This document shows, in pieces, positions 4,046-20,420 of a stretch of 64,000 nt of DNA (positions within the stretch are counted from its first letter, which is position 1; the number at the start of each line of letters is the position of its first letter). Source of the stretch: an uncultured bacterium (GTDB lineage Bacteria > Verrucomicrobiota > Kiritimatiellia > RFP12 > UBA1067); the NCBI GenBank assembly GCA_902761035.1, contig CACWIW010000004.1, forward strand, positions 3,981 through 67,980, in the 5' to 3' direction. Under the pieces are notes generated by a model, which saw nothing but the letters and a program-made list of their open reading frames with translations, was not told the DNA's origin and did no database searches. Made by a program: the position numbers and the translations under genes.

Positions 4046-4065
4046 ATGCGCCGTTTTCACCCCAT

Positions 4066-4139
4066 TGCCTCATGGTGTAATGGTAGCACCGCAGATTCTG
4101 AATCTGCTTGTTAAGGTTCGAGTCCTTATGAGGCAACCA
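4066..4139 (+). tRNA. tRNA-Gln (anticodon CTG), CCA encoded
   Basis: Hand-folded 74-nt cloverleaf: acceptor TGCCTCA/TGAGGCA, D stem GTGT/GCAC, anticodon stem GCAGA/TCTGC with loop TTCTGAA, 4-nt variable loop, T arm TAAGG-TTCGAGT-CCTTA, discriminator A, then CCA. Confidence 0.9.
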
Positions 4140-4542
4140 TTCCGCAAAACCTGCGGACTCTCGACGTTGGATGCGTCGGGCCGAGCACGCCACCGATGCA
4201 GTCAATGATTTCGCCGCCGGCCTTCTTGAAGTAACCTCCAATTATGGATTTCGATGATTCAGGAACGAGAATTGCTGGAAACAACCGGGCGAAAGTCGCG
4301 GATTATCTCGGGCAGCTTGAAGGCACACCACTGTGGGAGAAACGCATCAAACTTGCGGCGCAAGTATAAAATTGGTCTTTTAGGCTTCATGCGCTGATAT
4401 TATATCACTAATCTGCCACACTAGGCAACCCTCAAACATATTTTATGAGCGAACTTTCCATAGAATCTGCCATTTTTATGAGCGAAGTTCTCAGATTCCC
4501 ATTCGACGTTCTCCATTGGCGTAGGAATTGCGGTCACGCGCG

Positions 4543-5124
4543 CTATCGCTTCGCCGCCGCGACTCGCTTCACGATCTCGGCCACGGCCTTCCACTTCTTT
4601 CGGATGACGGACCGTTTCGCGAACTTGGCGGGAATCTTCCCCTTGTGCTTCACGAAGAGCATGAAGGTTTCGGCGAAGTCCTCCTGCGTGGCAGAAGTGG
4701 CGTATTCAGAGACATAGCGGGTTCCCCACCCCGCCGCGACGCACTCTTCCGCAGGATCTTCGCCGTAGGCGCCACCGAACGCGGCGCGGAACAATCCGCC
4801 CTTCTTCAGCGCGCCCGGATACAGGTCCGCGAGCGCGTGCCCGAACTCGTGACGAATCACGTCAAGCGCGTTCGCCTTCACGCCCAGGTCGCGCCAGAGA
4901 GCCGCGATTGGCAGATACATTGACGGGAATTCAATAGTCTTCTCCTTCTCCTGATAGCGTCCCATCGTCCCTGTAAATGTCATGCTCGGCGCAATCGTCA
5001 GGTACGTGCACCCGACCCCGTCCAGTTTTGATCCATCCCACAGGACGCCGAGACGCCAGAGTTCCATACGGACCTTGTTGTAGGCCCGATTCACTTCGTT
5101 GCGCGATGTGTAGATTTGGCCCAT
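4543..5124 (-). CDS. Putative zincin-like metallopeptidase (HEFGH motif)
   Basis: 193-aa ORF with IRHEFGHALAD (HExxH). An acidic EDFAETF segment lies ~55 aa downstream, where the third zinc ligand of gluzincins would sit. Last gene of the island operon. Confidence 0.55.
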   Translation of the reverse strand: MGQIYTSRNEVNRAYNKVRMELWRLGVLWDGSKLDGVGCTYLTIAPSMTFTGTMGRYQEKEKTIEFPSMYLPIAALWRDLGVKANALDVIRHEFGHALADLYPGALKKGGLFRAAFGGAYGEDPAEECVAAGWGTRYVSEYATSATQEDFAETFMLFVKHKGKIPAKFAKRSVIRKKWKAVAEIVKRVAAAKR

Positions 5125-5190
5125 GATGTTCTTTCATTACCCTGCTACGTACATTTCTCGTTGGGATTGCTTTCGAGTCCCAACAATCAC

Positions 5191-6177
5191 CTACCAGTTT
5201 AGCTTATCTTTCGGCTTCAGCTGCCTCAGCACTGTCATACCCTCGGCGTAGCCCTGCTTGATAAATCGCTTTGCGCACTCACCATTGAAGGCCAGAGTAC
5301 CAGACCAGATGCGAATCTGGCGAGAGAGAGCATCAACACTTTGTGTAAGTTTCCCTACAAATGGAACGTCGTTTAGGAAACCGAAACTTGGCAACAAGTC
5401 GCTTGCGACATCCAACAGTCCTCGCAGTGAGCTACGGGGACGCACCTCGACTAATGTTGTGCCGCGCGGGATGGTGGCATCAATCGCTTCCGGTTCGTCA
5501 GCGGCACAATTACACCGCACGACGATGATCGTACGGATGTCGGGCCGACGTTCGAGAATCTGGGAGACGGGGATGTTGTCCCCGCCCATTGCCTCCCAGG
5601 AACCATCGACATACCTCCTGCCGTTTAGATCCACCGGAGCAAATCCCCATGGGATGGCCGCAGAGGCAAGTAGCTGCTTGATTCTGTTGTCTGCGTTCAC
5701 TTCCTCGTTCAGAAAGAAACATTGTCTTTCATAGCAGTCCGAATCAAATGTGCTGAGCAATCCCCCTCGGCATTCAAGCGTAGTGGCGTAGACTTCCGGC
5801 GCCCCTTCTGGCCATATTCTAGGAAGCAGTCTAGAAAGAATCGTTTCCAGAGCGCTACGGTCAAGAAGCCCCTGGAACGGGAATGGTTTCCCCGACAACA
5901 CGTCTTTGAGGGCAACGATGAACTGACCCGGCACTAGATTTGAAAGATTTGGCGTGGCGATGTCACCGACTTTTGTGTGCCAGAACCGGCAAATCTTCTC
6001 CGGATCACGTAACGCAGCAAACGCCGCAGCGTTGATCGCTCCGGCGGAAGTGCCAGAAATCACGCTAACCCGATCGGCAAGACCGAGTTCGCACATCGCC
6101 TTCCAGACACCAGCCTGGAACGCCCCTTTCGCGCCGCCGCCAGAGAGGACGAGCCCAATTGAATCATCATTTCCCAT
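5191..6177 (-). CDS. Patatin-like phospholipase
   Basis: Oxyanion box LSGGGAKGAFQAG, nucleophile elbow GTSAGA (GxSxG), catalytic-Asp region YVDGS. 4 nt separate it from the M48 gene stop. Confidence 0.85.
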   Translation of the reverse strand: MGNDDSIGLVLSGGGAKGAFQAGVWKAMCELGLADRVSVISGTSAGAINAAAFAALRDPEKICRFWHTKVGDIATPNLSNLVPGQFIVALKDVLSGKPFPFQGLLDRSALETILSRLLPRIWPEGAPEVYATTLECRGGLLSTFDSDCYERQCFFLNEEVNADNRIKQLLASAAIPWGFAPVDLNGRRYVDGSWEAMGGDNIPVSQILERRPDIRTIIVVRCNCAADEPEAIDATIPRGTTLVEVRPRSSLRGLLDVASDLLPSFGFLNDVPFVGKLTQSVDALSRQIRIWSGTLAFNGECAKRFIKQGYAEGMTVLRQLKPKDKLNW

Positions 6178-6180
6178 ATT

Positions 6181-7017
6181 CTACCAACTCAGTTTTGCTT
6201 TTCCAATCGTTTCGCCGAGCGTAACGGCTGGACGATATCCTGCGAACCACTTCTTCACCTCTGCGGCACGGACGGCAGGATACGGATGCGAAGCATCCTT
6301 TATCATCCAGTTCTGCAGAAACTTACTCTTGCCAGAATCCTTCATGAACTTCTGGTATTCGGCGGCTTGTTGGACGAACTGCTCCATGTCCACGCGTTCG
6401 GTGATGCGCGTTCCACCTCCGGCAAGACGCATCATCGTGCGAGCGACGACATCAGCGTCATTTGTCACGTATGCCGCCACACGGTCAGCGGAAAACTCAC
6501 TCCGGCGAATCCAGTACATGAGCGCCCACTGCAGCGGCTCGGAGATGATGCCGAGACCAAACAATCCTCCAATGCCGCCCCCTGCGGAAACGAGCAGACT
6601 TGCAAGGGAATGGTAGAGAACATGTCGGCAGAGGATATGCCCGCATTCGTGCGCGATGACAGCCCTCAACTCTTCCTTGGAAAGTAAGTCGATGATACCT
6701 GAGTTCACGACGACGAACGGCTTGGTGTCACCGTATGTGTAGGCATTCGGGATCGGATCCATTTCAAGGAACATTTCCGGTTCCGGTATCTGAAGCGTTT
6801 CGCAAGTATCCTTCAGAATCGCATAAAGTTCGGGAAGTTGCGACGGCCCGAGCTTGATCTTTGAAGCCATGTTGATACCGTGCATCATGTCCTCGGTGAC
6901 AGACTGCATGAATTTCTTCATGAGCGTGTCAAGCCCCGGGATTGCCTGTAGCTTGTTCAACGCATCCCGATCTTCGGGGTGAATGAATGGTTTGTAGTCG
7001 ATGGGCATAGTGAACAT
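6181..7017 (-). CDS. M48-family zinc metallopeptidase
   Basis: AHECGHILCRH (HExxH) followed by hydrophobic segments and SEFSADR, typical of M48/HtpX-like peptidases. 278 aa. Confidence 0.8.
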   Translation of the reverse strand: MFTMPIDYKPFIHPEDRDALNKLQAIPGLDTLMKKFMQSVTEDMMHGINMASKIKLGPSQLPELYAILKDTCETLQIPEPEMFLEMDPIPNAYTYGDTKPFVVVNSGIIDLLSKEELRAVIAHECGHILCRHVLYHSLASLLVSAGGGIGGLFGLGIISEPLQWALMYWIRRSEFSADRVAAYVTNDADVVARTMMRLAGGGTRITERVDMEQFVQQAAEYQKFMKDSGKSKFLQNWMIKDASHPYPAVRAAEVKKWFAGYRPAVTLGETIGKAKLSW

Positions 7018-7050
7018 TCCTCTCTTTGAATGACATTGGATGAAAAATTA

Positions 7051-7791
7051 CTACTTTCCTTTCGAAAAAATCTTTCGGAAAAATCCGCTGCACCTTGTAC
7101 GAATCTCAGAAAACCACTTTCGCTTCGGCGGATGAAGTAACACATCAACATCTTTACGACAAGTTTCGAGCTCCTTGCGAAGCTCAGTTACTTCTTCTTT
7201 GAGAAGCTTATTTTCGTCTCTAGCACAATTGAGATTTGCCTTGGCGTCGTCAATAAGTCGCTGCAATTCTGCGACCTTGTCCGGCACTGCCTGAAACTGC
7301 TTCTCGGCACTTTCCACACGAACACGACAGCGCTCAACCTCATTAGAGAGAGTGTCTGTCTTACTCTTGAGCTCGCCGTTGTCTTTCAAGATACTGTCGA
7401 GATTCGTTATGACCGAGTTGACTAATGTTGTAAGTTCGGCACGGACTGCCTCACGCACAGCCTCGCGCACAGCATCAGGGATTACGTTGAGGCGCTGATC
7501 TAAGGCGTCTAAGCGTTTGCCGGCGACTTCAATACACTTCCACGCCGTCCACTCGCCTTTCGGAAGCGGTCCATTGAGCTGCTTGTATGCGGTAAACGCT
7601 TTATCACGCAATGATCGGAGTTCGGAGTATATGTCCTCTCCTGGATTGAGCTTGAGTTCATTGATAGCCCTCCAAAGCGCCTCCTTGTTCTCGTTTTCTT
7701 TATGAAAGGCATTCAAATGGTCTTGAAAATCATCCCAAGACGGAACATAGACATCACCTCCAAATACTCCTTGCGACACTCTTACCGACAT
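7051..7791 (-). CDS. Coiled-coil protein, unknown function
   Basis: 246-aa ORF. The C-terminal half has heptad-like, charge-rich sequence (ELKSKTDTLSNEVERCRVRVESAEKQFQAVPDKVAELQRLIDDAKANLNCARDENKLLKEEVTELRKELE). No motif I recognise. Confidence 0.6.
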   Translation of the reverse strand: MSVRVSQGVFGGDVYVPSWDDFQDHLNAFHKENENKEALWRAINELKLNPGEDIYSELRSLRDKAFTAYKQLNGPLPKGEWTAWKCIEVAGKRLDALDQRLNVIPDAVREAVREAVRAELTTLVNSVITNLDSILKDNGELKSKTDTLSNEVERCRVRVESAEKQFQAVPDKVAELQRLIDDAKANLNCARDENKLLKEEVTELRKELETCRKDVDVLLHPPKRKWFSEIRTRCSGFFRKIFSKGK

Positions 7792-7804
7792 AATGCGGCA
7801 CCTT

Positions 7805-8278
7805 TCATTTCGCCTTCCTCGACGAAGTCGGTCTCTTCTTAGCTATATTTCGTTTTGCCGTAACCGGCCTAGTACTGGATGACATTACAGTTTTCTTACG
7901 CACTGCGGACTTGCGTGTCTTTCCAATCTTCTGCTTCGCCTTCTCCATCGGCAATTCGACCCCAAGATGCTGTGCCAGCAAGCGGTAGTGGGGCGCAAGC
8001 AGTTCCTTGATCACCCCTTGGAATGTTTCACGCGCCGTCTCGACAATCTTCTCGATTTCTTTTTGTGCTACGGCGGCGATCTTTGCCGCAGAAGCTGCCT
8101 GAACAGACATCTTGGCAAGCTTGCGCTCCTGCGCTTCCATTTTACTGTCAATGTCGCCAATTTCCAGTCCGATTACTTCTGCCACAATATTCTTAACGTC
8201 GGCCCGCGTCAAGATATCGACCGTTCTAGTCTCGTCGCCGGTCAAGTGGCTTACAGTCACGAAAGTATGTCTAGCCAT
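7805..8278 (-). CDS. Small protein with Lys/Arg-rich C-terminal tail, unknown function
   Basis: The ORF track starts at 8305. I prefer the ATG at 8278 (MARHTFVTV), which follows GGAGGA by 5 nt and lies just after the upstream stop (8290). The tail is KAKQKIGKTRKSAVRKKTVMSSSTRPVTAKRNIAKKRPTSSRKAK. Confidence 0.55.
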   Translation of the reverse strand: MARHTFVTVSHLTGDETRTVDILTRADVKNIVAEVIGLEIGDIDSKMEAQERKLAKMSVQAASAAKIAAVAQKEIEKIVETARETFQGVIKELLAPHYRLLAQHLGVELPMEKAKQKIGKTRKSAVRKKTVMSSSTRPVTAKRNIAKKRPTSSRKAK

Positions 8279-8289
8279 AACCATCCTCC

Positions 8290-9045
8290 CTATGCGGCAT
8301 TCCACCGCTTTTTGAATTCCACCACGAAACGATCCACGATCCTATTGATCTCACGTTCCGGATTCGCTACCGCGTGTTTGAGCAACTCAAGCGGAAGATT
8401 CCTCAGGAAGTCACGAACGGGAATGAATCCGCTACGGACGAGCATCTCGTTGCGAAGAGCGTCATCAACTGCGGAGATACCAAGATCATCTTCCGCGTAC
8501 GAACGTATCTTCCGAATGTCTCTCGTGTCACCCTGAGAAACGGAATCTATCAAACCGAGGCCAAACCGCGCCCAAAGAATGTTAAGCGGAATGACGAAGT
8601 GGCCGTCCAGCGGGATTATCAAGGACTTCAACCCCTTGTTTTCCAGCTCAGCTTCGATCGTCTCAACGATGTCACCGTTTTCTTCAGGCGACCACTTCTC
8701 GGAATTCCTACAGTTCAGGAGAAAGATCATTTGCTTCCCCTGTTCTCGGACTCGTTTGAAAACATCTGCACAGGTTTCCCCTAGCGACTTGCTTTCATGG
8801 ACATAAATCACCACGTTCGACATGTCGATGGCAGATGCAGCCGTACCGTCATCCTCGCCATTCGCATCGAATCCCGGTGTGTCGATGATGGAAACGGCCG
8901 GTGACAGCGAATAAATGACGTTCTCATGCGTGGTAGAAAGTCCCCGCCCCATTTCGGCGACATTGCGACCAACAAGCGCATTTACCAATGATGATTTTCC
9001 GCGCTGAAATCCACCGACAATGGAGATTGTCAAGACTGTGCTCAT
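8290..9045 (-). CDS. Small dynamin-type GTPase (paralog of 11983-13074)
   Basis: G1 VGGFQRGKSSLVNAL, G3 IIDTPG. Shares the blocks FLLNCxNxExWSP and IEAELxNxG with the 363-aa paralog. ATGA overlap with the upstream 966-aa gene. Confidence 0.75.
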   Translation of the reverse strand: MSTVLTISIVGGFQRGKSSLVNALVGRNVAEMGRGLSTTHENVIYSLSPAVSIIDTPGFDANGEDDGTAASAIDMSNVVIYVHESKSLGETCADVFKRVREQGKQMIFLLNCRNSEKWSPEENGDIVETIEAELENKGLKSLIIPLDGHFVIPLNILWARFGLGLIDSVSQGDTRDIRKIRSYAEDDLGISAVDDALRNEMLVRSGFIPVRDFLRNLPLELLKHAVANPEREINRIVDRFVVEFKKRWNAA

Positions 9046-11942
9046 CCGGCCAACTCCTTTGTGACGGTTGAGGCAAAAGCCTCGATCCGCTTACGCAACG
9101 GTTCAATGACATTAATGCGTTCGGCCCTGTTTGCCTCGGCGATGCGCTTGCGCTCTTCAAGGGATTTGCCAAACTGTGTTTCAGGTTCCCTTACACGCTC
9201 TGCCTCAAAGTCGGTCTTTAGTGAACCAAGACGCGAAATGAGTTTTTGTCGTATTCCCTCAAGACCTTGTCTAAGCTGATCTTCCAGAGGCTGTCTGATT
9301 TTGTCTTGAAATCGGATATCATTGACAGAATCCTCTATATTCTTGCGGAATTTGCTCGCCGTCTCCACAATCAAAGCATTGCGCCGCTGTTCCTTGGCAA
9401 TTTTGTTTCTTTCTGGCGCAGATGGGTCAATACCTCCTATCTTTGCCAATTCAGCAAAGAGCCAAAGCAAAAAGTCCAACAGGTTTTTGAAATTATTCAG
9501 CAAAAAAGTCTTGATATCTGTCGCACCGTGGACGATGTCAATCACCTGCCGGTTTTCCAATAGGACATTGGACAGATTATCGCATAACTCGCCGACGTCT
9601 TCCTCGGGGACGCTGGGAGGCTCAAATCCATCCAACATTTCGCTCTCGTTGATCTTCCGTTCCTTCCAAAGTTCGTGGATGTCACTGCAGACAAAAGCCA
9701 ACGATTTTCGAAGCCGTCCAACACCATCGCCTTGACGCCACTGCTCCAGTGCGCGGCTCATGGCACCCTTCAAAGCCCCCGCAAATTTCGGGGTTATGTC
9801 ACGCTTGATAGCTTGAGCCAGCTTCTCGGCGCTCCAGAAGAATCCGGCATTCACGGTTGATTCGGCCAAATGATAGGAAAGGTCAGTCACCAATCGATTC
9901 CCGATGGCAAGCTCAAGAATTGATCGAGCCAAACTATTTACCATTGAGTCAAGGCCCTCTCCCAAAACAGATCTTTCAACTTTCCCATTGGCGCGATCTA
10001 CAAAATCAGCTAATTGCCTTTTCGCATCTTCGACCTTGACCTTCCATTCTGCCTCTTTTTCCTCCGCAGCCTTCTCGGAGGCTCTAAGAACACCTTCGTA
10101 GGCGCTGAGCGCCTTGGCCGCACGGTCGCTGCCGCGATTCACGAGAATGCTTTCGGCCTTAAGCGGAATGATGTCATTGTTTAACTTGGAGATGATTACA
10201 TCCAATTGGCTCGCCTGCCGAGCAATTTCTACGGATGCCGACGTTAATTCATCGATACTTGCGAGATTATCATCTTCAATCATAGTGCCGACTTTATGAA
10301 CCATCTTCACCCACATGGAAGACAACGAAGAAGCTCCGTCCTTGACTTTAGCGTCACGGCGCATATTTGCCTCATCCAAATCGCTGAACAAGTCGTGGTG
10401 TTTCAAGAGCAATTCACCCTGCGTGGAAAGGAAAGCCAAGCGCGCGCTGTAAGGGACAACATCCAAAGATCGTCCCATATTGGCGAGCAAGCTTTTCGTC
10501 ACATCTAGAATCTCCGTTGATTTGACATCCCATTCTGACCAAATATTGGCCGTGGTCTGGATTTTTCCATCAAGTCCCCAATTGGCGATCCGCTGAATGG
10601 CCCTCTTGTCATGATCACCCAACTGCTTGTCGCCATAAATTAGATACCAGACAGCGTCGGCATGGCGAATCGCTCTCTCCGCCACACAGGTGTCAAAGGC
10701 ATTGGCAAAGAGGCCGGGGCAGTCCGTAATGCGGCAGCCCAGCCGTTGGAGATTTTCGGAATGGAGTCGAACCAAAACGGAACGAACAAATACAAATGCA
10801 ACCTCATCAAACTCAAAATGGGCGTTGCAGCCATCCCGCCACCGTGTCTCCCAGTCTTTTGGGAAAGCGACTAGTTTTTGAAATTGATTGATGGGCAGCG
10901 TAGCGTTCTCAACCAGTTCCTTTTGCCCATCCGTTCCGAAAAAACGGAGCTGGAGCGTGGCGATGCGCAATTGGTCGAGGCGATCTCGCTCCCAGTTTGC
11001 CTTGTCAGATTCCCACTTTCGCCACAGACCATCTGCGGTACTGCGAAGAAGGTTCATTATTTCCGGTCTTCGCAAATCGGCCAACTTAGGAAACCCGTCA
11101 TCGGTATCGATAGCATCTTCATATTCTTCGTCGGAGAGATTTGAGTTTAAGCTCCGCAATTCTTTTGAAGCCATCAGCTCTCCACGAAGGATGGTTGAAA
11201 TTCCCAGGGAAAGTTCATCTGGGGACTTATAACTTACCTCTGCCCATTCGGCAAGGCCGTCCTTCGTCTCGTTTCCCGAAATATTCTGGGCTGTGACAAC
11301 GGCAGCGCTCGTCTTAATGCCACTGCCGCGCGGGGAGATGTCGCGACCATCGCAGAGTGCGTTGAAAGTGGTGGACTTCCCGCCCTGATACTCGCTGACG
11401 AGGGCGATTTCAAAGGCATCCTCCTGACACTTACACGTTGTCAGGCGAAGTTCATCGGCGTATTTCTTTGGCACGTTCAGAGCGGAAGCTTCCTTCAAGA
11501 GGGCAAGCAATTCGTTGCGGCGGAATTCATACCATCTCGCACGGTCTTTGATATTGACGATCCGTGTTTCATCAGTTTTCGCCGTCCAGATGATATCGCC
11601 GTTTTCAAAATGTGAGATTCGGTCGTTCGGATCGCTGTCGCCATCGTAGGCTTCCTCGTCAGAAATCGGATGCCCGAGTGAACCTCGTTTGCCTGAAATG
11701 TCGAAAGCCCCCCACTCCTTGTACCAGCGCCTACCAATCGTACCATGGATTTCATGGGGTTCGGTCTCGCCGGGGCGTATCACAATCGCGCACCAATCCT
11801 GGTAGTTACACTGCCATCCACCGTCGAGGGTACGATAGATTCCAGGTTCTATTGGTTCGCCAACATAATATCCGCGTTGCTTCATCCAGTCGTATTTGGC
11901 CTGGAATTTGGAAAGGACATCAGCTGGGATGTTAGCGTTCAC
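9042..11942 (-). CDS. Large dynamin-like protein with N-terminal LGFP-like repeats (paralog of 13083-15650)
   Basis: G1 SEYQGGKSTTFNAL (aa 183-191), G3 ITDCPG (aa ~405-410), then ~550 aa of helical stalk-like sequence. It aligns by eye along its whole length with the 855-aa ORF. The extra ~128 N-terminal aa resemble LGFP repeats. Confidence 0.8.
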   Translation of the reverse strand: MNANIPADVLSKFQAKYDWMKQRGYYVGEPIEPGIYRTLDGGWQCNYQDWCAIVIRPGETEPHEIHGTIGRRWYKEWGAFDISGKRGSLGHPISDEEAYDGDSDPNDRISHFENGDIIWTAKTDETRIVNIKDRARWYEFRRNELLALLKEASALNVPKKYADELRLTTCKCQEDAFEIALVSEYQGGKSTTFNALCDGRDISPRGSGIKTSAAVVTAQNISGNETKDGLAEWAEVSYKSPDELSLGISTILRGELMASKELRSLNSNLSDEEYEDAIDTDDGFPKLADLRRPEIMNLLRSTADGLWRKWESDKANWERDRLDQLRIATLQLRFFGTDGQKELVENATLPINQFQKLVAFPKDWETRWRDGCNAHFEFDEVAFVFVRSVLVRLHSENLQRLGCRITDCPGLFANAFDTCVAERAIRHADAVWYLIYGDKQLGDHDKRAIQRIANWGLDGKIQTTANIWSEWDVKSTEILDVTKSLLANMGRSLDVVPYSARLAFLSTQGELLLKHHDLFSDLDEANMRRDAKVKDGASSLSSMWVKMVHKVGTMIEDDNLASIDELTSASVEIARQASQLDVIISKLNNDIIPLKAESILVNRGSDRAAKALSAYEGVLRASEKAAEEKEAEWKVKVEDAKRQLADFVDRANGKVERSVLGEGLDSMVNSLARSILELAIGNRLVTDLSYHLAESTVNAGFFWSAEKLAQAIKRDITPKFAGALKGAMSRALEQWRQGDGVGRLRKSLAFVCSDIHELWKERKINESEMLDGFEPPSVPEEDVGELCDNLSNVLLENRQVIDIVHGATDIKTFLLNNFKNLLDFLLWLFAELAKIGGIDPSAPERNKIAKEQRRNALIVETASKFRKNIEDSVNDIRFQDKIRQPLEDQLRQGLEGIRQKLISRLGSLKTDFEAERVREPETQFGKSLEERKRIAEANRAERINVIEPLRKRIEAFASTVTKELAG

Positions 11943-11982
11943 GGATTAACTCCTTTGCGATGAATGTTGGGTTGGGTGATGG

Positions 11983-13074: not shown

Positions 13075-13082
13075 TGCTGCAC

Positions 13083-15650
13083 CTAAGCCGAAAGATCGAC
13101 AATGACCGCGTCCTTGAACGCATCGATCCGCTTGCGCAGCGGCTCGATGGTCTGAGTACGAATGGCATGGATTTCGGCGGCAATCTTCTTGCGCTCTTCG
13201 ACAGACTGTCCGAACATCTTGTCCGGTTCGGCGACACGCTCTTTCTCAAAGTCTTTCTTGAGATCTTCAAGCCTGTTACGCAGAATATCCTCGATTTTCT
13301 GCACCGAACCTACAAGTTCTTCGTTCAGCGGTTTGACAATGCCGTTGCGGAAGGTAGAATCAGATACGGCCTTTGCAATCTCAGGACGGACTTTACCGAA
13401 GATTCTATCTATTTCCCGTTTCAGTCTCTCAATCTCCGCTCGTTCACGCTCCTCCTCACTGCGAGTCAAATCCCAGATGGCCTTTCCGATGAAGACAGCA
13501 GCTGTAAGTGGGAAACAGACAATTCCTCCAATGAACCCAAGAAGCATTGGCCAGATAACCTCCCAGATAACCGTGAAAATGCCTCTCCGCCCTTTCTCTG
13601 CTATTTCGCTGATATTTGTGCCACCCATGACTTTTTCAGAAAGATTTCCGCAAACACCCGTTATGTCTTCCAGAGAAACAGTTGGCGTTGAAAAACCACG
13701 AAGCATCTCAACGTCGCTTAACTGACGATCTGCCCACAAATCATGAATCTCGTCACATACATTAGACAACGAACGACGAAGGCGATCAAGGGAATTGCTA
13801 CCTGATTTAGCCTTCCATTCTTCGATTGCGCAAGTCAATGCGTCTTTGAAGTCCTCCGCCAAGACAGGTGTCATTCGAGCGACAAGATCCCGTTCCATGG
13901 CTTTCCGCGTCATGTAGAATTCGCGGCTGGTAATCCTAAGTATGGCTGCGATGTCATTTGCGAGGATATCAATGAATTGATCGCCTAAGGCCATGTCAAC
14001 AATCTCCGTTGCCATAACCTTGGCGAGCATGTCTTTCGATCCCGCGAAAGACGAACGATCGATTGTTGTATTGGCCCTTTCGACAAAATCCGCCAGCTGC
14101 CTGCGGGCGTCTTCAACCTTGGCGCGCCATTCTTCTTCCTTTGCCAGAGCGGCGTCTTCAGTTGCCTTCAGAACGCCTTCGTAGGCGAGAAGCGCCTTGG
14201 AGGCGCGGTCGCTGCCGCGGTCAACGAGGATACTTTGCGCCTTCTGGGGAATTATCTCGTTTTCAAGACGGGAGAGAATACCGTCGAGCAGACTTTCGCG
14301 GCGCACGACGGCAATGGATTCAGCATCAAGTTCCTGGATGTCCTCAACATTCTCGAGCTCAGTTGACCCTCCGACACGTCGTACCATCTTAGCCCACATG
14401 GTTTCCGGCGCAGGATCACCTTCCTTGACCTTTGCGTCGATGCGCATGTTGGCTTTGTCGAGACTGGAGAAAAGCGATGCACGGTTGAGAAGCAGGTCGC
14501 CCTGCATGGCGAGGAACGCGAGGCGGGCGTTGTAAGGAAATACCTCAACGGCATGTCCTGCATTGGCGAGGGCGGCCTTTGTGGCGGGAATGATCTCGGC
14601 TATCTTCTGCTCATGCGGCCCCTTGAGGTTACTCGTGGCCTCGATTTTCCCGAGCATCCCCATCGCGGCGATGGCGCGGATGATTTCAAGATCCTTCTGC
14701 CCAATCTGCTTCTCGCCGTTTATAAGATACCAGACGGCATCGGCGTTGAGGATTGTGCGCCGCGCCACACTGGTGTCGTATGCGTTGGCAAAGAGGCCGG
14801 GACAGTCCGTTATGCGGCAGCCGAGCCGCCGGAGATTCTCCGAGTGTATACGCACGAGGACAGACTGCACAAATACAAAGGCCACTTCGTCAAGCGTGAA
14901 CTGCGAGTCCGGCCCGTTCATCCAGCGGACCATCCAGTCTTTAGGGAAGGCGATCAGCTTCTGGAACTTGTCGATGGGCAAAACAGCCTGCGAAACCATC
15001 TTATGGTATTCTGCGCTATTGTAGAAACGCAATTGCAGCGTGGCAATGCGCAATTCGTCCAGCTCGTCGTCAGAAAGCGACGTCTTGTCGTTGCGCCACT
15101 TGCTCCAGAGCACGTTAGTTGCACTCTTTAGCGCGGTGCGGCATTCGTCGTTGTCAAGATCGACAAGGCCAGGAAAGCCATCGTCCGTCGCGATTGCCTC
15201 CGCATATTGCTCGTCGGACAACTTGGAGTTGAACCTGCGGAGAGCCTCGGAATCGATAAGCGGACGGCGGAGGATTGTGGAAAGGCTGAGCGCTATAGCA
15301 CCAGGTGTCTTGAAGGTCACTTCCGCCCATTCCGGCAAGCCGTCTTTCGTTTCGTCACCGGCGATATTCTGCGCCGAAATGACTGCGGCGCTCGTCTTGA
15401 TGCCGCCACCGCCGAGCCCGCGCGGGGAGATGTCGCGACCGTCGCAGAGCGCGTTGAATGTCGTGGATTTGCCGCCTTGGAACTCACCAACGAGGGCAAT
15501 CTCAAAGGAGTCCTCCTGGCACTTGCGCGAGGTTTGACGGAGTTCGTCCGCGTACTTTTCGGGAAGATCTAACGCCGTGGCCTCCCGAAGGAGTTCGAGG
15601 AGTTCGTTTCGACGTGTTTCGTACCACTTGGCTGTGTTGTCGTTAGTCAT
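13083..15650 (-). CDS. Large dynamin-like protein with hydrophobic hairpin
   Basis: G1 GEFQGGKSTTFNAL (aa 55-63), G3 ITDCPG (aa ~280-285), helical stalk. Hydrophobic hairpin GIFTVIWEVIWPMLLGFIGGIVCFPLTAAVFIGKAIW near the C-terminal third, at a BDLP paddle-like position. Confidence 0.8.
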   Translation of the reverse strand: MTNDNTAKWYETRRNELLELLREATALDLPEKYADELRQTSRKCQEDSFEIALVGEFQGGKSTTFNALCDGRDISPRGLGGGGIKTSAAVISAQNIAGDETKDGLPEWAEVTFKTPGAIALSLSTILRRPLIDSEALRRFNSKLSDEQYAEAIATDDGFPGLVDLDNDECRTALKSATNVLWSKWRNDKTSLSDDELDELRIATLQLRFYNSAEYHKMVSQAVLPIDKFQKLIAFPKDWMVRWMNGPDSQFTLDEVAFVFVQSVLVRIHSENLRRLGCRITDCPGLFANAYDTSVARRTILNADAVWYLINGEKQIGQKDLEIIRAIAAMGMLGKIEATSNLKGPHEQKIAEIIPATKAALANAGHAVEVFPYNARLAFLAMQGDLLLNRASLFSSLDKANMRIDAKVKEGDPAPETMWAKMVRRVGGSTELENVEDIQELDAESIAVVRRESLLDGILSRLENEIIPQKAQSILVDRGSDRASKALLAYEGVLKATEDAALAKEEEWRAKVEDARRQLADFVERANTTIDRSSFAGSKDMLAKVMATEIVDMALGDQFIDILANDIAAILRITSREFYMTRKAMERDLVARMTPVLAEDFKDALTCAIEEWKAKSGSNSLDRLRRSLSNVCDEIHDLWADRQLSDVEMLRGFSTPTVSLEDITGVCGNLSEKVMGGTNISEIAEKGRRGIFTVIWEVIWPMLLGFIGGIVCFPLTAAVFIGKAIWDLTRSEEERERAEIERLKREIDRIFGKVRPEIAKAVSDSTFRNGIVKPLNEELVGSVQKIEDILRNRLEDLKKDFEKERVAEPDKMFGQSVEERKKIAAEIHAIRTQTIEPLRKRIDAFKDAVIVDLSA

Positions 15651-15671
15651 TTTTCATTCACTTTTGTCTTC

Positions 15672-15695
15672 CCCACCCGTCTTGCGACGGGTGGG
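15672..15695 (-). other. Intercistronic GC-rich hairpin (10-bp perfect stem, 4-nt loop)
   Basis: CCCACCCGTC-TTGC-GACGGGTGGG, between the stop at 15707 and the start at 15650. No U-tract follows on the transcribed (minus) strand. Confidence 0.5.
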
Positions 15696-15706
15696 ATTAA
15701 GGGTAT

Positions 15707-18016
15707 TCAGAATGTCTTAGTAAGTGCAGCTAGGGCACCAGCGGCGGCATTGGTGAGGCGTGTCTTCTCGTCTGGAGCGGGCGTGAGTTCGTCACGCCAA
15801 TTGGCGACGATGATGCGGAATGCTTCATCAGAGTTCTTAGATCGGATGAAAGCGTCAAAAAATGTTTCCACGACGGCCGCGAAGATGCGGTTGGGACAGA
15901 AGCTCTGGGCGGAACCCATCGATTGCTCCAGCATCGCAATCACGTCGGCGCGAACCGAGGCGTCCGGGATTGCCTTTTCAAAGAGCCTCTTCTTACGCTC
16001 CAACGCGGCGGTATTTCCGGTGCCGGACTTGCGCATGGCCGTTGAATACGCTTCGGCCGCTTCCTTCAATTTCGCGTCGAGCGCAGCTAGGGTTTCCTGC
16101 ACGGCGTTCGCGTCGGACTCGGACACGTCCGGAAATCGCTTAGGTTCAAGGGAATCCGTTGCCGCATGGAGCAACGGTTCCAGATGGAAACGGAACTGGA
16201 GGTCGAATTCCGCAATCCTCCGAAGCGGAGCGGAAAGCTCTCGCAGGATTGCCGCATCCCCGGGATACTTCGTGCGTTCGTCGATTCGGTCGGCCAGGGC
16301 GACGATTTGGGCCCTGACGGCAGCCAGCCGTGCGGAGGGGCTGTCCGAGGCCGGGGTTGCTTTCGCAGGAACGAACCCATTCAAGTACCGGTTGGCCCGG
16401 AGCGAATCCATGACATCCGACAACAGCCGCGCGATCCGGTCGGTCAGATGCAGGTCCATCGTCTCCCATTGGTCGCGGAATTTCACGCGGAAATCGTTGA
16501 TGAAGAGCTGCGGCCGCCCGTGTTCCTTCGTAATCGCGCTCTTGACGACCCGACGCAATTCTTCGGGCGAACCGTATCCGAATCCTTCTGCTCCCCAGCG
16601 GAGAACTTGTTCCTTGACGTTGGAAACGGCGTCGTTCCACTCCTTGTCCTCTCCGCGCGTCTTTTCCACGGCGGAATCCCGCTGGCGTTCCAGAATGTCC
16701 TGGGTTTCGTTGTGGAGCATTGCCGCGAACACATTGGGATTCACGGAATCCAGACCGAGCGCAGGGACCTTGGTTCGGGCAGACTCCACTGCATTTCGAG
16801 CGGAGGCAAGGGCCGCTTCCGCTTTTGCGTTTTGGCGGGACAGGATGGCCGCGTCGATGACGGGGAGGTTTTTCGCGAGGAAATCCAGAATGCGCGGCAT
16901 CGCAACTTGATTCACCTTGTCCTTGCAGTGGGCGTCGCATTCAATTGTCTCGAACGGACGATCAACCTTCGCCCGGAAGTTCTCTACACAACTTTGTAAC
17001 CGATCCGGCGTCGAAGCATCATTAAAGAGAACTAACGTGAATTTCGTCTGATCCTCAACATCTGGAACGACTCTCTGCATCGCATCCAGCGCGGTAGTGT
17101 CGGCCTTCAACCATTCGACACGGCCATCTATCGGCACCTTTTTCACAAGTATCGTGATGTCGCAGCTGTTCCGAAGATTTTCAGTCTGAGCTTTCGCCAG
17201 ATTTATGCCCGCCTCGCCTATGCCAGGGAGATCGACAACACGGAGTTTGGCGAAGTCAGTGGCCGGGAACGGAGCCTTAACCACGAGGTTCGCGACAGCT
17301 AGAAACGGACCTGCTTTCGTCTTTCCATCCTCAGGGTATGCCACAAACTGACGTAGTTCCGGCAGTGAGATTGAGACGGCCCTTCGTCCTGTAAGATAGG
17401 ACTCGTATCCCGTCAGATGTAATTTTGCGTGCTCCAGTCTCTTTATAATATCGAGGTTGTTCTGGTTCTCCTCAACGCCCTGCGGAAGTTCCACGTGTAG
17501 GTCACGGAAGGCTGCCATGCTGGTCGGCGCGGGGATTCCGATCTCACTGCACAAAGGTGCGATAACCTCGGAGAGGAATGATTCAGGCGAGTGAAAGTCC
17601 GCGATTGCGGCCTTTTCGTCCAGACTGTTCTCAATCAGACTTCGGACGGCCGTGGTACAGTATAGGTCGCCAGTAGGGATTTCGTTTTCTGAGAGCCCTG
17701 TTGCGGATTGGATGAATGTGCTTTTCCCCATACCCGCCGTACCGCCGATGCCGATGCACAGAGTTTCCCGTGCGAAACGGACACGGACAAGGGCATAGTC
17801 AGCGAGAACGCCTCGCACGGCTTCCGCAGCCGAACGAAGCTGGACGGACGCTCCGTGCAGGTCGGAATTGGCGCATTCGGCGGCTTCCGTTTTAGCGATG
17901 ACTCCCTCCAGCGCGATTTCACGAGATTTCCACGCGGCAATGGCCGCGTCAATATCTTTCAGGTGCGCTGCGCGTGTGGCGAGGATAGCATCAAGTTGGG
18001 CTGAGATGTTGCTCAT
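15707..18016 (-). CDS. Divergent P-loop GTPase, dynamin-like (LeoA/HP0731-type by recall)
   Basis: 769-aa ORF. G1 GIGGTAGMGKSTF (aa 88-100), G3 VVDLPGIGEAG (aa 260-270), a long helical C-terminus. No obvious hydrophobic hairpin. Confidence 0.65.
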   Translation of the reverse strand: MSNISAQLDAILATRAAHLKDIDAAIAAWKSREIALEGVIAKTEAAECANSDLHGASVQLRSAAEAVRGVLADYALVRVRFARETLCIGIGGTAGMGKSTFIQSATGLSENEIPTGDLYCTTAVRSLIENSLDEKAAIADFHSPESFLSEVIAPLCSEIGIPAPTSMAAFRDLHVELPQGVEENQNNLDIIKRLEHAKLHLTGYESYLTGRRAVSISLPELRQFVAYPEDGKTKAGPFLAVANLVVKAPFPATDFAKLRVVDLPGIGEAGINLAKAQTENLRNSCDITILVKKVPIDGRVEWLKADTTALDAMQRVVPDVEDQTKFTLVLFNDASTPDRLQSCVENFRAKVDRPFETIECDAHCKDKVNQVAMPRILDFLAKNLPVIDAAILSRQNAKAEAALASARNAVESARTKVPALGLDSVNPNVFAAMLHNETQDILERQRDSAVEKTRGEDKEWNDAVSNVKEQVLRWGAEGFGYGSPEELRRVVKSAITKEHGRPQLFINDFRVKFRDQWETMDLHLTDRIARLLSDVMDSLRANRYLNGFVPAKATPASDSPSARLAAVRAQIVALADRIDERTKYPGDAAILRELSAPLRRIAEFDLQFRFHLEPLLHAATDSLEPKRFPDVSESDANAVQETLAALDAKLKEAAEAYSTAMRKSGTGNTAALERKKRLFEKAIPDASVRADVIAMLEQSMGSAQSFCPNRIFAAVVETFFDAFIRSKNSDEAFRIIVANWRDELTPAPDEKTRLTNAAAGALAALTKTF

Positions 18017-18053
18017 TGGAACTGTTCCTGTTTGGGTTGATTGGTAAAATCGA

Positions 18054-18073
18054 CGGGGACGCTAGCGTCCCCG
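18054..18073 (-). other. Intercistronic 20-nt perfect palindrome / hairpin
   Basis: CGGGGACGCTAGCGTCCCCG between the stop at 18082 and the start at 18016. On the minus-strand RNA it is followed by UCGAUUUUA, so it could be a weak attenuator. Confidence 0.45.
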
Positions 18074-18081
18074 CCTGTGGA

Positions 18082-19800
18082 TTAAAGAGCGGCAAGTGCC
18101 GATTCGAGATCAGCCTTGGCGCTTTCAAGTGCGGCGCGGTCAGCAGATTCTGCGGGAGACGCGGCAAGAGCAGAACGGATGGCTTCGACTTGTGCCTTGT
18201 TATAGACCTCCATTGCCGCCTTGACATCGACAAATGTCTTTTCTATGCCATCATTTACCTGCTTCATCACCTGCGTAGACACATTCGGCTTCGCTTCCTC
18301 AAGTCCTTTCTTAACCTGCGAAAGGATCAACTTCTTCACACCCCATTCCGCAGGCGAAAAGTTCTCGCCGAGTAACATCTTTGCGATGATAGCCGTAATC
18401 CACCCAAAAGGCAGGATCACATTGAGGAGAGCTACTTCTATGGCCTTGATGACGAGCGTTGGGACTTTTGCCGCAATCGGCTTCTCGATTTTCAATTCAT
18501 CCGAAATGAAAACATTCCACGGCTTCCGACATTCATCCATATTCTTCGCATAGCGATCAATCAGGCGATTGACATCGGACTTGAGCTTGAGCGCAATGAT
18601 GGAAACCTTGTCCTGCAGATCAGACCTGAGTGTCGTACTCGCCCTCTCAAGGACCTTCTTCATCGCATCAACATCCTCCTTCTCGGAGAATTCCGCATAG
18701 AACTTGTCAAACACTGCATCGACTGCGAGATTGACATCGCGTTTGATGTCGTCGTTCAGCGCGCTCACTTCATCCTGGAACCGCTCGAACGCCAGTTCGG
18801 CCTGCTCCTTGAAGCGGGCGACTTCGGTTTCAACTCTGGCGGCAAGTGCTGCGCGCTCGGCATCGGATTTACCTGCTGTCGCAAGTTTGGTAGCAATGCC
18901 AGCGAGGTCTTTCTCAAGTTCAACTCGAAGGAGATTCGCAATCTTCTCCTCGCGACCGGGAAGTGCGTTATCCGCAAGGAACTGGCGGATAGTCATGCGG
19001 ATTTCGGCGACATCTGACATGATGTCCTCAACCGACGAATCAAAGCAGTACATCTCGACGGGGATGTTGTCGCGGCCCATGTTAGTGAGATCGGCCTTAA
19101 TCGTGCGAAGAATATCCTTGCGCTCTTCCTGATCCTGATTCATTGTCTTTGGATTGAATGAAGCGAGAACCATTAGGCGGGAGATACCGTTTCTGCCCAT
19201 GATTTCCTTGCGCAGAAGACCACGTTCTCTGTCTCCTAGCGTCTTATCGCCGCGGACAACGAGGAGTGCCACATCTGCAGTGGGGATTATGCGCCAGGTT
19301 GTATCAAGCAGGAGTTCCTGATTAGGATCGTCGAGTCCAGGCGTATCCACAACTGTGAAACCGCGAAGTGCTTCATTCGGAACTTTCACGGCAACACGGG
19401 CACGCTTCTTTGCGAGCTCGGCACGCGTTTCCATTGCACTGGAAACCGTTACATCATTCACATCATCCTCAGTCGGGTTCGGTATCGTCTTCGCGAGCGT
19501 CTCGCCAGTTCGGCTGGTATCAGTCCAGTCATAAACTTCAAGTATCGGTGACGAAGCGTATTCGATGTCGGTGGCGACAGCCGTCGTGCAAAGCCCCCGC
19601 CCTTCGGAGAGGAGCGGTTTGTCGCCGAGAAAAACGCGATTGATTAGCGTCGATTTGCCGACCTGGTATTCGCCGACGACAGCGACGCGGTACTGGGGAT
19701 TCTCCAATCCGGCAATCTGCTTCTCGAGATCGACGGGGAGTGTGAGGCCGTGCGCCTTAACAGCGCGTGCGGCGTTGCGGATGGCTTCCTGTTTGCTCAT
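18082..19800 (-). CDS. Bacterial dynamin-like protein (BDLP/LeoA-like)
   Basis: 572 aa. G1 VVGEYQVGKSTLINRV (aa ~42-57), G3 VVDTPGLDD (~aa 150), helical stalk. Hydrophobic hairpin PTLVIKAIEVALLNVILPFGWITAIIAKMLL. Confidence 0.8.
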   Translation of the reverse strand: MSKQEAIRNAARAVKAHGLTLPVDLEKQIAGLENPQYRVAVVGEYQVGKSTLINRVFLGDKPLLSEGRGLCTTAVATDIEYASSPILEVYDWTDTSRTGETLAKTIPNPTEDDVNDVTVSSAMETRAELAKKRARVAVKVPNEALRGFTVVDTPGLDDPNQELLLDTTWRIIPTADVALLVVRGDKTLGDRERGLLRKEIMGRNGISRLMVLASFNPKTMNQDQEERKDILRTIKADLTNMGRDNIPVEMYCFDSSVEDIMSDVAEIRMTIRQFLADNALPGREEKIANLLRVELEKDLAGIATKLATAGKSDAERAALAARVETEVARFKEQAELAFERFQDEVSALNDDIKRDVNLAVDAVFDKFYAEFSEKEDVDAMKKVLERASTTLRSDLQDKVSIIALKLKSDVNRLIDRYAKNMDECRKPWNVFISDELKIEKPIAAKVPTLVIKAIEVALLNVILPFGWITAIIAKMLLGENFSPAEWGVKKLILSQVKKGLEEAKPNVSTQVMKQVNDGIEKTFVDVKAAMEVYNKAQVEAIRSALAASPAESADRAALESAKADLESALAAL

Positions 19801-19950
19801 GTTGTTTCTTTTCCTTTCACGATTCTTGTCTTCCTGATGGCTTGCGCCCTTTCAGACATCGGCGGGGGCGGAAAACGGAAAACTCCTCCGATGCATCGCA
19901 AGAGATGAAGTCACTTGCGACGCTTCCCATGGCCGCAGGGGCGGCGGTCG

Positions 19951-20420
19951 CGGGGCGACCGCCCTACCGTTCGGTCACGCGGGACGCGTGACCCTACCAG
20001 TTGGTCGTAACAAGCGCAACCCTCCCGCGCGGGAAATCTGTTGCCGAGGCGATTTGGGGCTCGCCCCTTCTCGTATTGGCGGAAATAGTATACCAAAAAT
20101 CAGACCCGCGAGCGGGATAACTTGGTAGAAAATTACTCCCGCCAAACCTCGCGCCCGCAGCCTGTTCGGAAATTCATTGTCCTATCCCCCGCCTGTTCAT
20201 AAGTCGGGCTCTGGGGGCCCAGATGTGTGTAGTCGGACATAGGTAACACTTAGGCAAAGGACATGGGTATTTGCGGCGGCTCGGCGGGACGCCTCGCCCC
20301 ACCATGCGGCGCGCTCGGTGATCGCGCCCTACCATGCGAACCGGTAGGGGCCGACCACCGGGCGGCCCGGAGGTGGGGCGAACCCTCCGGGTGAGCCGTG
20401 GCGGCTCGGCGGGACGCCTC
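19951..20420. repeat. GC-rich REP-like repeat block
   Basis: The identical 21-mer GGCGGCTCGGCGGGACGCCTC occurs at 20275-20295 and 20400-20420, 125 bp apart. CCCTACC-type motifs occur at 19962-19968, 19992-19998 and 20327-20333, with an inverted GGTAGGG at 20343-20349. Further short GC hairpins are present. Confidence 0.6.

Follow-up and report, generated by a model that had tools for sequence, protein, structure and literature searches.

The locus examined here raises the question of what occupies the DNA directly 3′ of a tRNA-Gln(CTG) gene in an uncultured bacterium of the Kiritimatiellia, and of how it came to lie there. The stretch analyzed, hereafter the window, comprises 64,000 nucleotides (nt) of contig CACWIW010000004.1 (assembly GCA_902761035.1), and all positions are window coordinates. 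A reading made from the letters alone (the sequence-only reading) had described at this place a segment of about 15.7 kb with low G+C content (GC), which it took for an accessory island but whose cargo it had not identified. We find that the segment from 4181 to ~19,920 is a horizontally acquired accessory cassette that is unable to move by itself, and that it is essentially one promoter-to-terminator operon together with a decayed neighbouring gene. Its cargo is a new, expanded architecture of bacterial dynamin-like gene clusters, of which the nearest named relative is the Eleos system, although membership in Eleos failed on the features tested. Related genomes are labelled G (G000 being the present genome), loci elsewhere L, metagenome runs X and contigs C; the genes of the island are numbered g1 to g11 from left to right, all on the minus strand, with transcription running from g11 to g1.

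An accessory cassette between a tRNA gene and REP-like repeats

Judged by the flanking ABC-transporter gene, the host is an uncultured Kiritimatiellae bacterium of the rumen, a group that some records label 'Lentisphaerae'. The borders are defined by comparison with the closest relatives of the host, the sister species RUG14821 (G021) and SRR12081301_bin.91 (G024). Both align with the window at 95.7-96% identity from its first position up to 4180 exactly and are unrelated to it beyond that point, and on the right side 96% identity to G021 resumes at 20,442, at the end of a SASA esterase gene. With these break points the island extends from 4181 to ~19,920, or to 20,441 when a block of repeats resembling repetitive extragenic palindromes (REP) is counted with it. 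The features at its two ends, outside the operon, are as follows.

4066-4139, plus strand: tRNA-Gln(CTG), the left anchor (ARAGORN; Rfam RF00005, 62.8 bits)
4140-4180: spacer of 41 nt with two small hairpins, common to G021 and G024 (junction alignment, BLAST break points)
4181-4267: left end of the island, without match in the relatives
4268-4390, minus strand: remnant of an AAA_14/DUF4143 ATPase gene, internally deleted (tblastn/blastn against the copy on contig C53)
4399-4428, minus strand: promoter-like site TTGCCT-18-TATAAT with extended TG, upstream of the AAA_14 remnant
19801-19923: stretch upstream of the operon
19924-20427: block of GC-rich REP-like hairpin repeats ('...CCCTACC' units) around a unique 250-nt core, the right border
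20419-21870, minus strand: SASA-family carbohydrate esterase gene, the first host-type gene on the right (Pfam)

The composition of the segment differs from that of its surroundings. GC per 1 kb runs at 0.63-0.69 over positions 1-4000, at 0.48-0.59 over 4.0-19.5 kb and at 0.61-0.66 from 19.5 kb on. GC at third codon positions (GC3) is 0.50-0.65 in 10 of the 11 island genes and 0.76 in the remaining one, g1, compared with 0.77-0.86 for five genes of the flanks, and this deficit indicates that the shift in composition is no amino-acid effect. When the whole 6.1-Mb genome is taken as the reference, with 15.7-kb windows for GC and 150 sampled windows for tetranucleotide distance, the GC of the island (0.533 vs 0.597 for the genome) is matched or undercut in only 7% of the windows, and its tetranucleotide distance falls in the top 4%. 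The low-GC change 3′ of tRNA-Gln that had been read from the letters is thus borne out by all of these measures. The 11 open reading frames (ORFs) are all on the minus strand and either overlap or are separated by gaps of 66 nt or less, again as described.

The operon family is tracked by its marker gene g10, which none of the 60 relatives searched possesses, all 32 other genomes of the genus included. Since GC3 and k-mer composition also differ from those of the flanks, and the same 11 genes are not found at this locus in the relatives, the picture of an accessory island bounded by a tRNA and REP-like repeats is confirmed. The far border had likewise been recognized correctly as GC-rich REP-like repeats. 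These units form stable hairpins and have 90-230 matches each in the genome, on 56-111 contigs, and they are dispersed through all genus genomes searched, i.e. they are native to the genus. Of four metagenome unitig sets, the two richest show these repeats at a depth of ~1,300-8,500 and the two others at 400-6,100, compared with 4-37 for the flanks.

The island is no assembly artefact, since several assemblies and single unitigs cross both of its junctions. An identical g10 protein is found on eight contigs from several assemblies. The transition from the island through the REP block to the esterase gene is crossed by L105, L107 and L108, and that from the ABC transporter through the tRNA to the island by L110, all at identities of at least 99.95%; assemblies ERZ27279959, ERZ913629 and ERZ27279956 are among those that cross the junctions. 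Run X1 has a unitig that matches 3000-4365 without a difference, thus reaching 185 nt into the island, and another that covers 4570-19,887. The left junction (4138-4249) is also present in a contig piece of a sheep metagenome from a different study. A separate observation concerns L106, whose positions 7703-7752 mark the point where it leaves the island inside the REP block at ~20,314 for DNA found here on contig C111, so that cytidylate kinase and M16/M18 peptidase genes stand in place of the esterase; this switch is either a REP-mediated rearrangement in the population or a local assembly chimera.

No gene for movement was found in the cassette, as had been stated. Searches of the 11 ORFs against Pfam, NCBIfam, PADLOC and PHROGs gave no integrase, transposase, relaxase or phage family among the proteins, and inspection of the two intergenic ends of the island revealed no mobility gene. 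A search for attachment-site (att) repeats, in which the last 75 nt of the tRNA and 60 nt downstream were compared with the window and the genome, found nothing longer than 10 nt, and the absence of a tRNA copy at the far border was thereby upheld. A similarity of the form 'AAAACCT.CG' between 4148-4158 and 56,424-56,434 was considered as an att trace and set aside as weak and too short to count. The tRNA-Gln(CTG) gene is single-copy in the 6.1-Mb assembly according to a genome-wide ARAGORN search, and it is the sole non-coding RNA that Rfam found in 1-30 kb. A sigma-70 scan of the stretch upstream of the operon identified no promoter.

The island is decaying at its tRNA-proximal end, because the AAA_14 gene there is internally deleted: its first 18 codons are joined in frame to the last ~21, with a loss of ~1.25 kb relative to the intact paralogue of 455 amino acids (aa) on C53. 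An intact AAA_14/DUF4143 ATPase gene also lies in the window at 58,479-59,831 (PADLOC candidate PDC-S01, E=4e-108), in another low-GC patch (0.54-0.57) just past the NTP-transferase gene, which ancestrally adjoined tRNA-Gln. The last ~120 nt of g1 (4541-4660), which encode its conserved C-terminal 39 residues, occur in four copies of 81-94% identity on the 5.9-kb contig C222, where they adjoin AAA-type ATPase genes. On C53, ~55 nt of the g1 3′ end form part of a 79.5%-identical stretch that also includes the AAA_14 gene and the region between the two genes. All copies of the repeat share a sharp boundary at position 4656, beyond which 'TGAGCCATTTTCAGA' follows elsewhere; the repeat may have been left behind by recombination or be a small element of dispersed type. 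The left end of the island is built of sequences that are multi-copy in G000, namely the ends of the AAA_14 gene and the g1 3′ fragment.

Dynamin-like GTPases and co-encoded enzymes

The cargo consists of the following 11 genes, which are all on the minus strand.

4543-5124, minus strand: g1, 193 aa, Mx-type zinc metallopeptidase with HEFGH, last gene of the operon (Pfam Peptidase_Mx, 31.9 bits; cut-off 27)
5191-6177, minus strand: g2, 328 aa, patatin-like phospholipase (Pfam Patatin, E=1.7e-27)
6181-7017, minus strand: g3, 275-278 aa, M48 (HtpX-like) zinc peptidase with HECGH (Pfam Peptidase_M48, E=1.1e-23)
7051-7791, minus strand: g4, 246 aa, coiled-coil protein (weak coiled-coil-type matches only)
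7805-8278, minus strand: g5, 157 aa, small protein (gene call from other assemblies)
8290-9045, minus strand: g6, 251 aa, small GTPase-only dynamin-family protein with GKS and DTPG (Pfam Dynamin_N, 46 bits; MMR_HSR1)
9042-11942, minus strand: g7, 966 aa, large dynamin-like protein with N-terminal LGFP repeats (Pfam LGFP, 29.1 bits; Dynamin_N, 28.9 bits)
11983-13074, minus strand: g8, 363 aa, small dynamin-family GTPase (Pfam Dynamin_N, 46 bits)
13083-15650, minus strand: g9, 855 aa, large dynamin-like protein (AlphaFold2 and Foldseek; Dynamin_N, 24.9 bits vs gathering score 27)
15707-18016, minus strand: g10, 769 aa, divergent dynamin-like protein (AlphaFold2 and Foldseek), marker of the operon family
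18082-19800, minus strand: g11, 572 aa, BDLP/LeoA-like dynamin-like protein, first gene of the operon (Pfam Dynamin_N, 51 bits)

The six GTPases all keep GKS and DxPG (G1 GxxxxGKS/T, G3 DxxG), with the qualification that in the P-loop of g7, SEYQGGKST, Ser takes the place of the first Gly of G1. Pfam Dynamin_N passes its gathering score in g11, g8, g6 and g7, falls just short of it in g9 and is absent from g10; the latter has no Pfam match, and its conserved motifs are GxxxxGKST and DLPG. The two large proteins g7 and g9 are 50% identical, and g9 carries an insert of ~215 aa between G1 and G3. Matches to the PADLOC models of the Leo proteins are found for g11 (LeoBC, E=3e-21; LeoA, E=4e-12), for g6 (LeoBC, E=2.5e-19, GTPase part only) and, as partial matches to both LeoBC and LeoA, for g9.

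Because phmmer detected no relative of the island proteins queried among solved structures, the folds of g10 and g9 were predicted. AlphaFold2 models were made for these two proteins only, from family alignments, with a mean confidence (pLDDT) of 84 for g10 and 83 for g9. The best Foldseek match of g10 is BDLP (2j69, E=1.5e-11), followed by SynDLP, IniA, mitofusins and LeoA, while g9 matches SynDLP best (E=9e-14) and also IniA and Cj-DLP1/2 of Campylobacter. The E-values span 1e-14 to 1e-7; the TM-scores are low (0.2-0.47), as is expected for hinged multi-domain proteins. Both proteins are thus predicted to combine a dynamin-type GTPase with a helical neck and trunk (stalk), an assignment based on Foldseek probability and the motifs. 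Hydropathy points to hydrophobic paddle-like segments at residues 445-479 of g11 and 690-728 of g9, the latter in a region of low pLDDT, and to none above threshold in g7, g10, g8 or g6.

The remaining five genes include three with recognizable enzymatic motifs. The patatin-like protein g2 has GGGxxG (oxyanion), GTSAG and a DG dyad, and gives weak matches to PADLOC and NCBIfam phospholipase effectors. No gene in the operon family is better conserved than that of the M48 peptidase g3, which shares 85% aa identity with L096, and the homologue of g1 in L096 is 57% identical and takes the equivalent position in the operon. Homologues of g4 are found in L096 and L098, and those of g5 at the same position in L096, L098, L101, L111 and L112; g5 has no family match in Pfam, NCBIfam or PHROGs, and its C-terminal tail is rich in Lys and Arg (18 in the last 50 residues).

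The operon belongs to a wider family. Among the matches listed for g10 there are 133 homologues of ~760 aa with 39-82% identity, all of them unannotated, and a profile search retrieved 1127 clusters at 50% identity, 558 of them with E of 1e-30 or lower. The named carriers of close relatives are Kiritimatiellia, Lentisphaeria and 'Verrucomicrobia' metagenome-assembled genomes from the rumen, from reindeer and from the human gut. Elsewhere the conserved order is a protein like the 572-aa g11, a g10-like protein, a large dynamin-like protein (DLP), a small GTPase and a protein of ~200 aa, followed by a variable tail in which the coiled-coil protein, M48, patatin or Peptidase_Mx may appear, or DUF445 instead. 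This order is shared by L096, L098, L099, L101, L103 and L111-L116, whose contexts are mutually unrelated. DUF445 membrane proteins stand in for the lipase in L099 and L103, and a sigma-70_r2 factor and a Ser/Thr kinase lie directly downstream of the operon in L103 and L104. In L102 (8942-11,995), a TIR domain sits on the N-terminus of a g9-like protein where g7 bears LGFP, and that operon has extra DLP copies and an adjoining Ser/Thr kinase. The GC of the operon is 5-10 points below that of the flanks in three of the four loci measured (L096, L099 and L103), and L098 shows no deficit. The latter has a PrimPol/D5_N/DUF5906 replicase and an HTH_17 (excisionase-like) gene on one side of the operon, and RecT-like, PDDEXK/DUF2800, DUF932 and AAA_14/DUF4143 genes on the other, a context that looks like that of a mobile element. 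Separately, clusters of 2-3 large g9-like genes (32-40% identity) without a g10 homologue were seen in three relatives (G022:C5:116,397-123,709, G021:C128 and G053:C50), so that several kinds of multi-dynamin cluster are sporadically present in the order.

The operon appears to be a mosaic, because the closest relatives differ gene by gene: that of g10 is in L101 (82%), that of g11 in L111 (73%), those of g9 and g8 in L102 (67% and 78%), those of g7 and g6 in L111 (56% and 75%), that of g3 in L096 (85%) and that of g2 in L111 (72%). A simple tandem duplication of g7/g6 as the source of g9/g8 is not favoured, given that g8 is 78% identical to its counterpart in L102 and 33% to g6; from these identities, the second pair of a large and a small protein was more probably imported from another operon type. 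The DNA of the g7 LGFP region (11,542-11,911) is 86% identical to L096 12,396-12,765, and the rest of the g7 gene shows 66-70% nucleotide and 34% protein identity to the same locus. That the LGFP region and M48 are both unusually conserved with respect to L096 suggests an exchange of modules or a specific functional link. Variant islands, with some genes matched at 95-97% and others missing, were found in runs X3 and X21 of the same study. From the mosaic structure and from the co-occurrence of variant islands in the same rumen samples, we infer that the operon changes mainly by continuing recombination among its variants.

Comparison with known dynamin systems and proposed function

Dynamin-like proteins are among the least understood parts of bacterial immunity. 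Both DynA and IniA are responsive to membrane damage, and the former also delays lysis by phage. About 60% of Eleos loci adjoin known defence systems. To our knowledge the mechanism of Eleos is not known, and we know of no experimentally studied defence system from rumen or gut Kiritimatiellia and Lentisphaeria. Eleos (formerly 'Dynamins'; LeoA and LeoBC) is a two-gene dynamin pair whose defence against jumbo phages needs the P-loops (bioRxiv 10.1101/2022.05.11.491447). For DynA, membrane binding is reported to be essential for phage defence (PMC12998192).

The island operon shares with Eleos, and with LeoABC of enterotoxigenic Escherichia coli, the presence of adjacent dynamin-like GTPase genes on accessory DNA. 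The partial PADLOC LeoA/LeoBC matches of g11, g9 and g6 (E 1e-12 to 3e-21), the pairing of a full-length DLP with a small protein that has the GTPase part alone, reminiscent of the split LeoB/LeoC, and P-loops that are intact in the sequences of the island GTPases add to this likeness. However, Eleos has two or three GTPases, whereas the island operon has six in eleven genes and not the two-gene LeoA and LeoBC arrangement; Eleos lacks a counterpart of g10; and five extra genes are present here, encoding the patatin, M48, the Mx-type peptidase, the coiled-coil protein and the basic-tailed protein. The scores against the LeoA family (NCBIfam NF041922) were 28.6 and 20.9 bits, far from the cut-off of 325, and the island operon family has so far been seen in Kiritimatiellia and Lentisphaeria, unlike Eleos.

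The second group of comparison is formed by the paired DLPs, namely Nostoc BDLP, SynDLP, DynA, Campylobacter DLP1/DLP2 and IniA/IniC, which are the best fold matches of the g9 and g10 models. The likeness extends to the tandem arrangement of the genes and may include the hydrophobic paddle-like segments of g11 and g9. Those loci, however, comprise one or two genes, serve in housekeeping or stress and lack dedicated effectors of the lipase or peptidase kind, whereas the island cluster is strain-specific, compositionally foreign, mosaic and multiplied, and the identity of its DLPs to solved ones is below detection by phmmer. The operon architecture was not found described in the literature searched.

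The cargo probably serves in defence or conflict, with a distant resemblance to Eleos. A conflict system is favoured over housekeeping repair because the lipase and peptidases are dedicated, the heads (LGFP, TIR) can be swapped, and the distribution is patchy and prone to transfer. We consider it an even proposition that the products would form a GTP-driven membrane scaffold with co-encoded effectors. The six GTPases (g11, g10 and the pairs g9/g8 and g7/g6) would assemble into this scaffold at the inner membrane, triggered by a perturbation of the envelope or membrane such as phage entry or lysis, and would remodel or seal the membrane. The scaffold might in addition license the co-encoded effectors, i.e. 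the patatin lipase and the M48 and Mx-type zinc peptidases, and the LGFP module of g7 (TIR in a relative) would serve as a swappable sensor or effector head.

A more specific version of this proposal, which we put forward tentatively, is that the operon represents an undescribed 'poly-dynamin' immune system in which 4-6 BDLP-class GTPases would form a GTP-driven hetero-oligomer at the inner membrane that senses a breach of the envelope by phage and is coupled to exchangeable effectors. The large subunit might contribute to detection with its N-terminal head (LGFP in the island, TIR in a relative), and the effectors could be the patatin lipase, the M48 and Mx-type peptidases or DUF445. Such a system would spread as a cassette without mobility genes and diversify by swaps of subunit pairs between variants; so far it has been seen mainly in Kiritimatiellia and Lentisphaeria.

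Some of our data weaken the case for defence, the link to known defence genes being thin. When the flanks of the homologous loci (69 ORFs from 10 loci) were compared with PADLOC, they gave one IetA-like AAA protein and three generic Ser/Thr kinases. The neighbours in the window are mostly carbohydrate-active enzymes, and the nearest restriction-modification pair is 8 kb away. DUF445, the HtpX-like M48 and the adjoining sigma factor and kinase fit envelope stress equally well, and the stretch was not found in any RNA run. The restriction-modification pair just mentioned, a NotI-family restriction endonuclease (Pfam NotI) and a 5-methylcytosine DNA methyltransferase, lies in a low-GC islet at 28,212-30,877. 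The pair is NotI-like, and the gene remnant inside the island is of the PDC-S01 type.

The alternative that these points raise is an accessory module for envelope stress or membrane repair, comparable to the mycobacterial IniBAC or to the housekeeping role of DynA in B. subtilis, in which M48 and the lipase would act in membrane quality control. The predicted folds are indeed of the BDLP, IniA and SynDLP type, the M48 peptidase resembles HtpX, DUF445 membrane proteins replace the lipase in L099 and L103, the sigma-70_r2 factor and kinase follow the operon directly in L103 and L104, and few PADLOC defence genes are found in the neighbourhoods. We nevertheless regard this alternative as doubtful, since the distribution is patchy and strain-specific and the composition foreign, the swappable effectors include a TIR fusion and a patatin lipase, which are typical of conflict systems, PDC-S01-type AAA_14 genes adjoin the operon both here and in L098, and one copy lies in a mobile-element-like context.

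The question of a tRNA link and the route of arrival

The adjacency of the island to a tRNA invites comparison with classical tRNA-associated islands and integrative elements, with which it shares an atypical composition, a sporadic distribution and accessory cargo. Unlike them, it lacks an integrase, has no direct att repeat and shows no displaced fragment of the tRNA 3′ end; its break point is situated outside the tRNA, and its cargo family is not associated with tRNAs elsewhere. The classical integration at a tRNA 3′ end that the sequence-only reading had implied is therefore not supported: the break relative to the sister species lies 41 nt outside the tRNA, 0 of 13 other loci of the operon family have a tRNA nearby, and the neighbours of tRNA-Gln in the genus are housekeeping genes without an integrase. 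Nor does the empty tRNA-Gln/esterase site that would be expected of such an insertion exist in any relative, that junction being unique to this lineage.

The 3′ side of tRNA-Gln differs among genus members. In G013, G009, G005, G017 and G016, the tRNA is followed by a terminator, a 'TGCTATACT' promoter-like motif and the NTP-transferase gene, while in G008, G023, G020 and G018 a gene for a 1093-aa tricorn/S41 protease lies between tRNA-Gln and the NTP-transferase gene; other members have GlnRS, TsaE, HydF or Sua5 at this place. Because of these differing neighbours, we take the tRNA-Gln 3′ flank to be a synteny breakpoint in a divergent genus. In the window, the NTP-transferase gene is found at 56,478, 52 kb away and beyond a GFO/IDH/MocA oxidoreductase gene, beyond which it also lies in G021 and G024, and thus ~52 kb (4.2-56.4 kb) now lies between tRNA-Gln and the NTP-transferase gene, which were once neighbours. 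The notion that this flank is a general hotspot for mobile elements was rejected in view of the housekeeping neighbours in 13 other genus members, in none of which an integrase adjoins tRNA-Gln.

Alternative accessory modules at tRNA-Gln are confined to the G000/G021/G024 clade. In G021 and G024, a different module begins 41 nt after the tRNA (L001 4858-9701, i.e. G021:C45, and L002, i.e. G024:C197). It encodes a MoxR-type AAA_5 ATPase, a 169-aa protein, a VWA protein and a divergent S-adenosylmethionine-synthetase-like protein, with CesT and an ADP-ribosylglycohydrolase further on, and has no PADLOC match. A copy of this module with 84-89% identity is present on contig C25 of G000 in another context. 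The DNA to the left of the esterase gene likewise varies, being of the type found on G000 contig C18 in G021 and C6-like in G013 and G009. In the distant relative L096, the operon (8177-20,911) lies only 5.8 kb downstream of the orthologue of this NTP-transferase gene (1437-2360, 68% nucleotide identity), which may be a coincidence or reflect a conserved accessory region.

The best explanation overall, which we hold to be probable, is a non-autonomous, recombining cargo cassette at a synteny breakpoint that encodes a dynamin scaffold with effectors. The cassette, having no machinery of its own, would have arrived by recombination, and several routes are conceivable: homologous exchange via conserved flanks after uptake; exchange via multi-copy sequences, with the AAA_14 gene copies on the left and the REP clusters on the right; illegitimate joining during rearrangement; or delivery on an element like that of L098. 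Entry through a tRNA-targeting integrase is unlikely. A prophage origin was rejected, as there is no PHROGs signal and no match for g10 in phage records, and so was a plasmid origin, for which the g10 matches are only 27-33% identical (Streptomyces, Nonomuraea and cyanobacteria); at the Streptomyces plasmid locus that was inspected, the gene context differs from that of the island.

Certain observations temper this account of the arrival. The composition of the island is atypical and not unique: ~7% of the genome has a GC as low, which makes composition on its own a weak argument. Lineages that are ~4% divergent (sheep runs) seem to share the left junction, indicating that the island is not very recent, and its loss in G021 and G024 is possible. 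Neither a donor nor a recombination joint nor an empty site was identified, and the route of arrival is one that we only infer. No contig in eight metagenome runs skips the island, although contigs cannot reveal rare alleles.

The main rival as to the route is a decayed integrative element, which would have entered by means of an integrase at or near tRNA-Gln and later lost its integrase, att sites and backbone genes by deletion. The tRNA adjacency, the visible decay at the tRNA-proximal end with its internal deletion in AAA_14, the mobile-element-like setting of the L098 operon (PrimPol/D5, HTH_17 and recombination genes) and the other accessory module held by the sister species at exactly the same point all accord with such a history. 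It is unlikely, however, since no trace of an integrase or att repeat is found, the break lies 41 nt past the tRNA and not within its 3′ part, 0 of 13 other family loci adjoin a tRNA, no integrase is located by tRNA-Gln in 13 other genus members, and the borders of the island coincide with the ends of the operon.

A segment ancestral to the clade that was lost or replaced in G021 and G024, with a low GC that merely reflects a family-specific bias, is more improbable still. The ~4% divergent relatives from sheep and other cattle runs do have the left junction, with tail genes that are 90-97% identical, and a GC deficit accompanies the operon elsewhere (in three of the four loci measured). Yet the segment is absent from all 32 other genus genomes; distant members have tRNA-Gln directly by the NTP-transferase gene, which indicates that the whole present arrangement is derived; the deficit is seen in GC3, beyond amino-acid-driven positions; and the closest relative of each gene lies in a different organism. 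Finally, the idea that assembly or binning produced a chimera, with the conserved tRNA and the REP repeats as the points of joining, can be dismissed with near certainty, in spite of the metagenome-assembled source, the repeat-like nature of both borders (a conserved tRNA and dispersed REPs) and the switch of L106 to C111 DNA at ~20,314 inside the REP block, because a single unitig covers 3000-4365 without a difference, L105, L107 and L108 cross the right border and L110 the left, and the left junction recurs in a run from another host and study.

The preferred reading thus remains that of a recombining cargo cassette without machinery of its own. As an island it is ordinary, being accessory DNA without mobility genes at a synteny breakpoint, and the case cautions that 'next to a tRNA' should not be read as 'integrated by an integrase'. 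The cargo is of greater interest than the island itself: four to six dynamins occur in a conserved assembly, hard-wired to recognizable enzymatic effectors and to swappable N-terminal heads, and its P-loops, the active sites of its lipase and peptidases and its LGFP or TIR heads offer handles on what bacterial dynamins sense and how they act on membranes.

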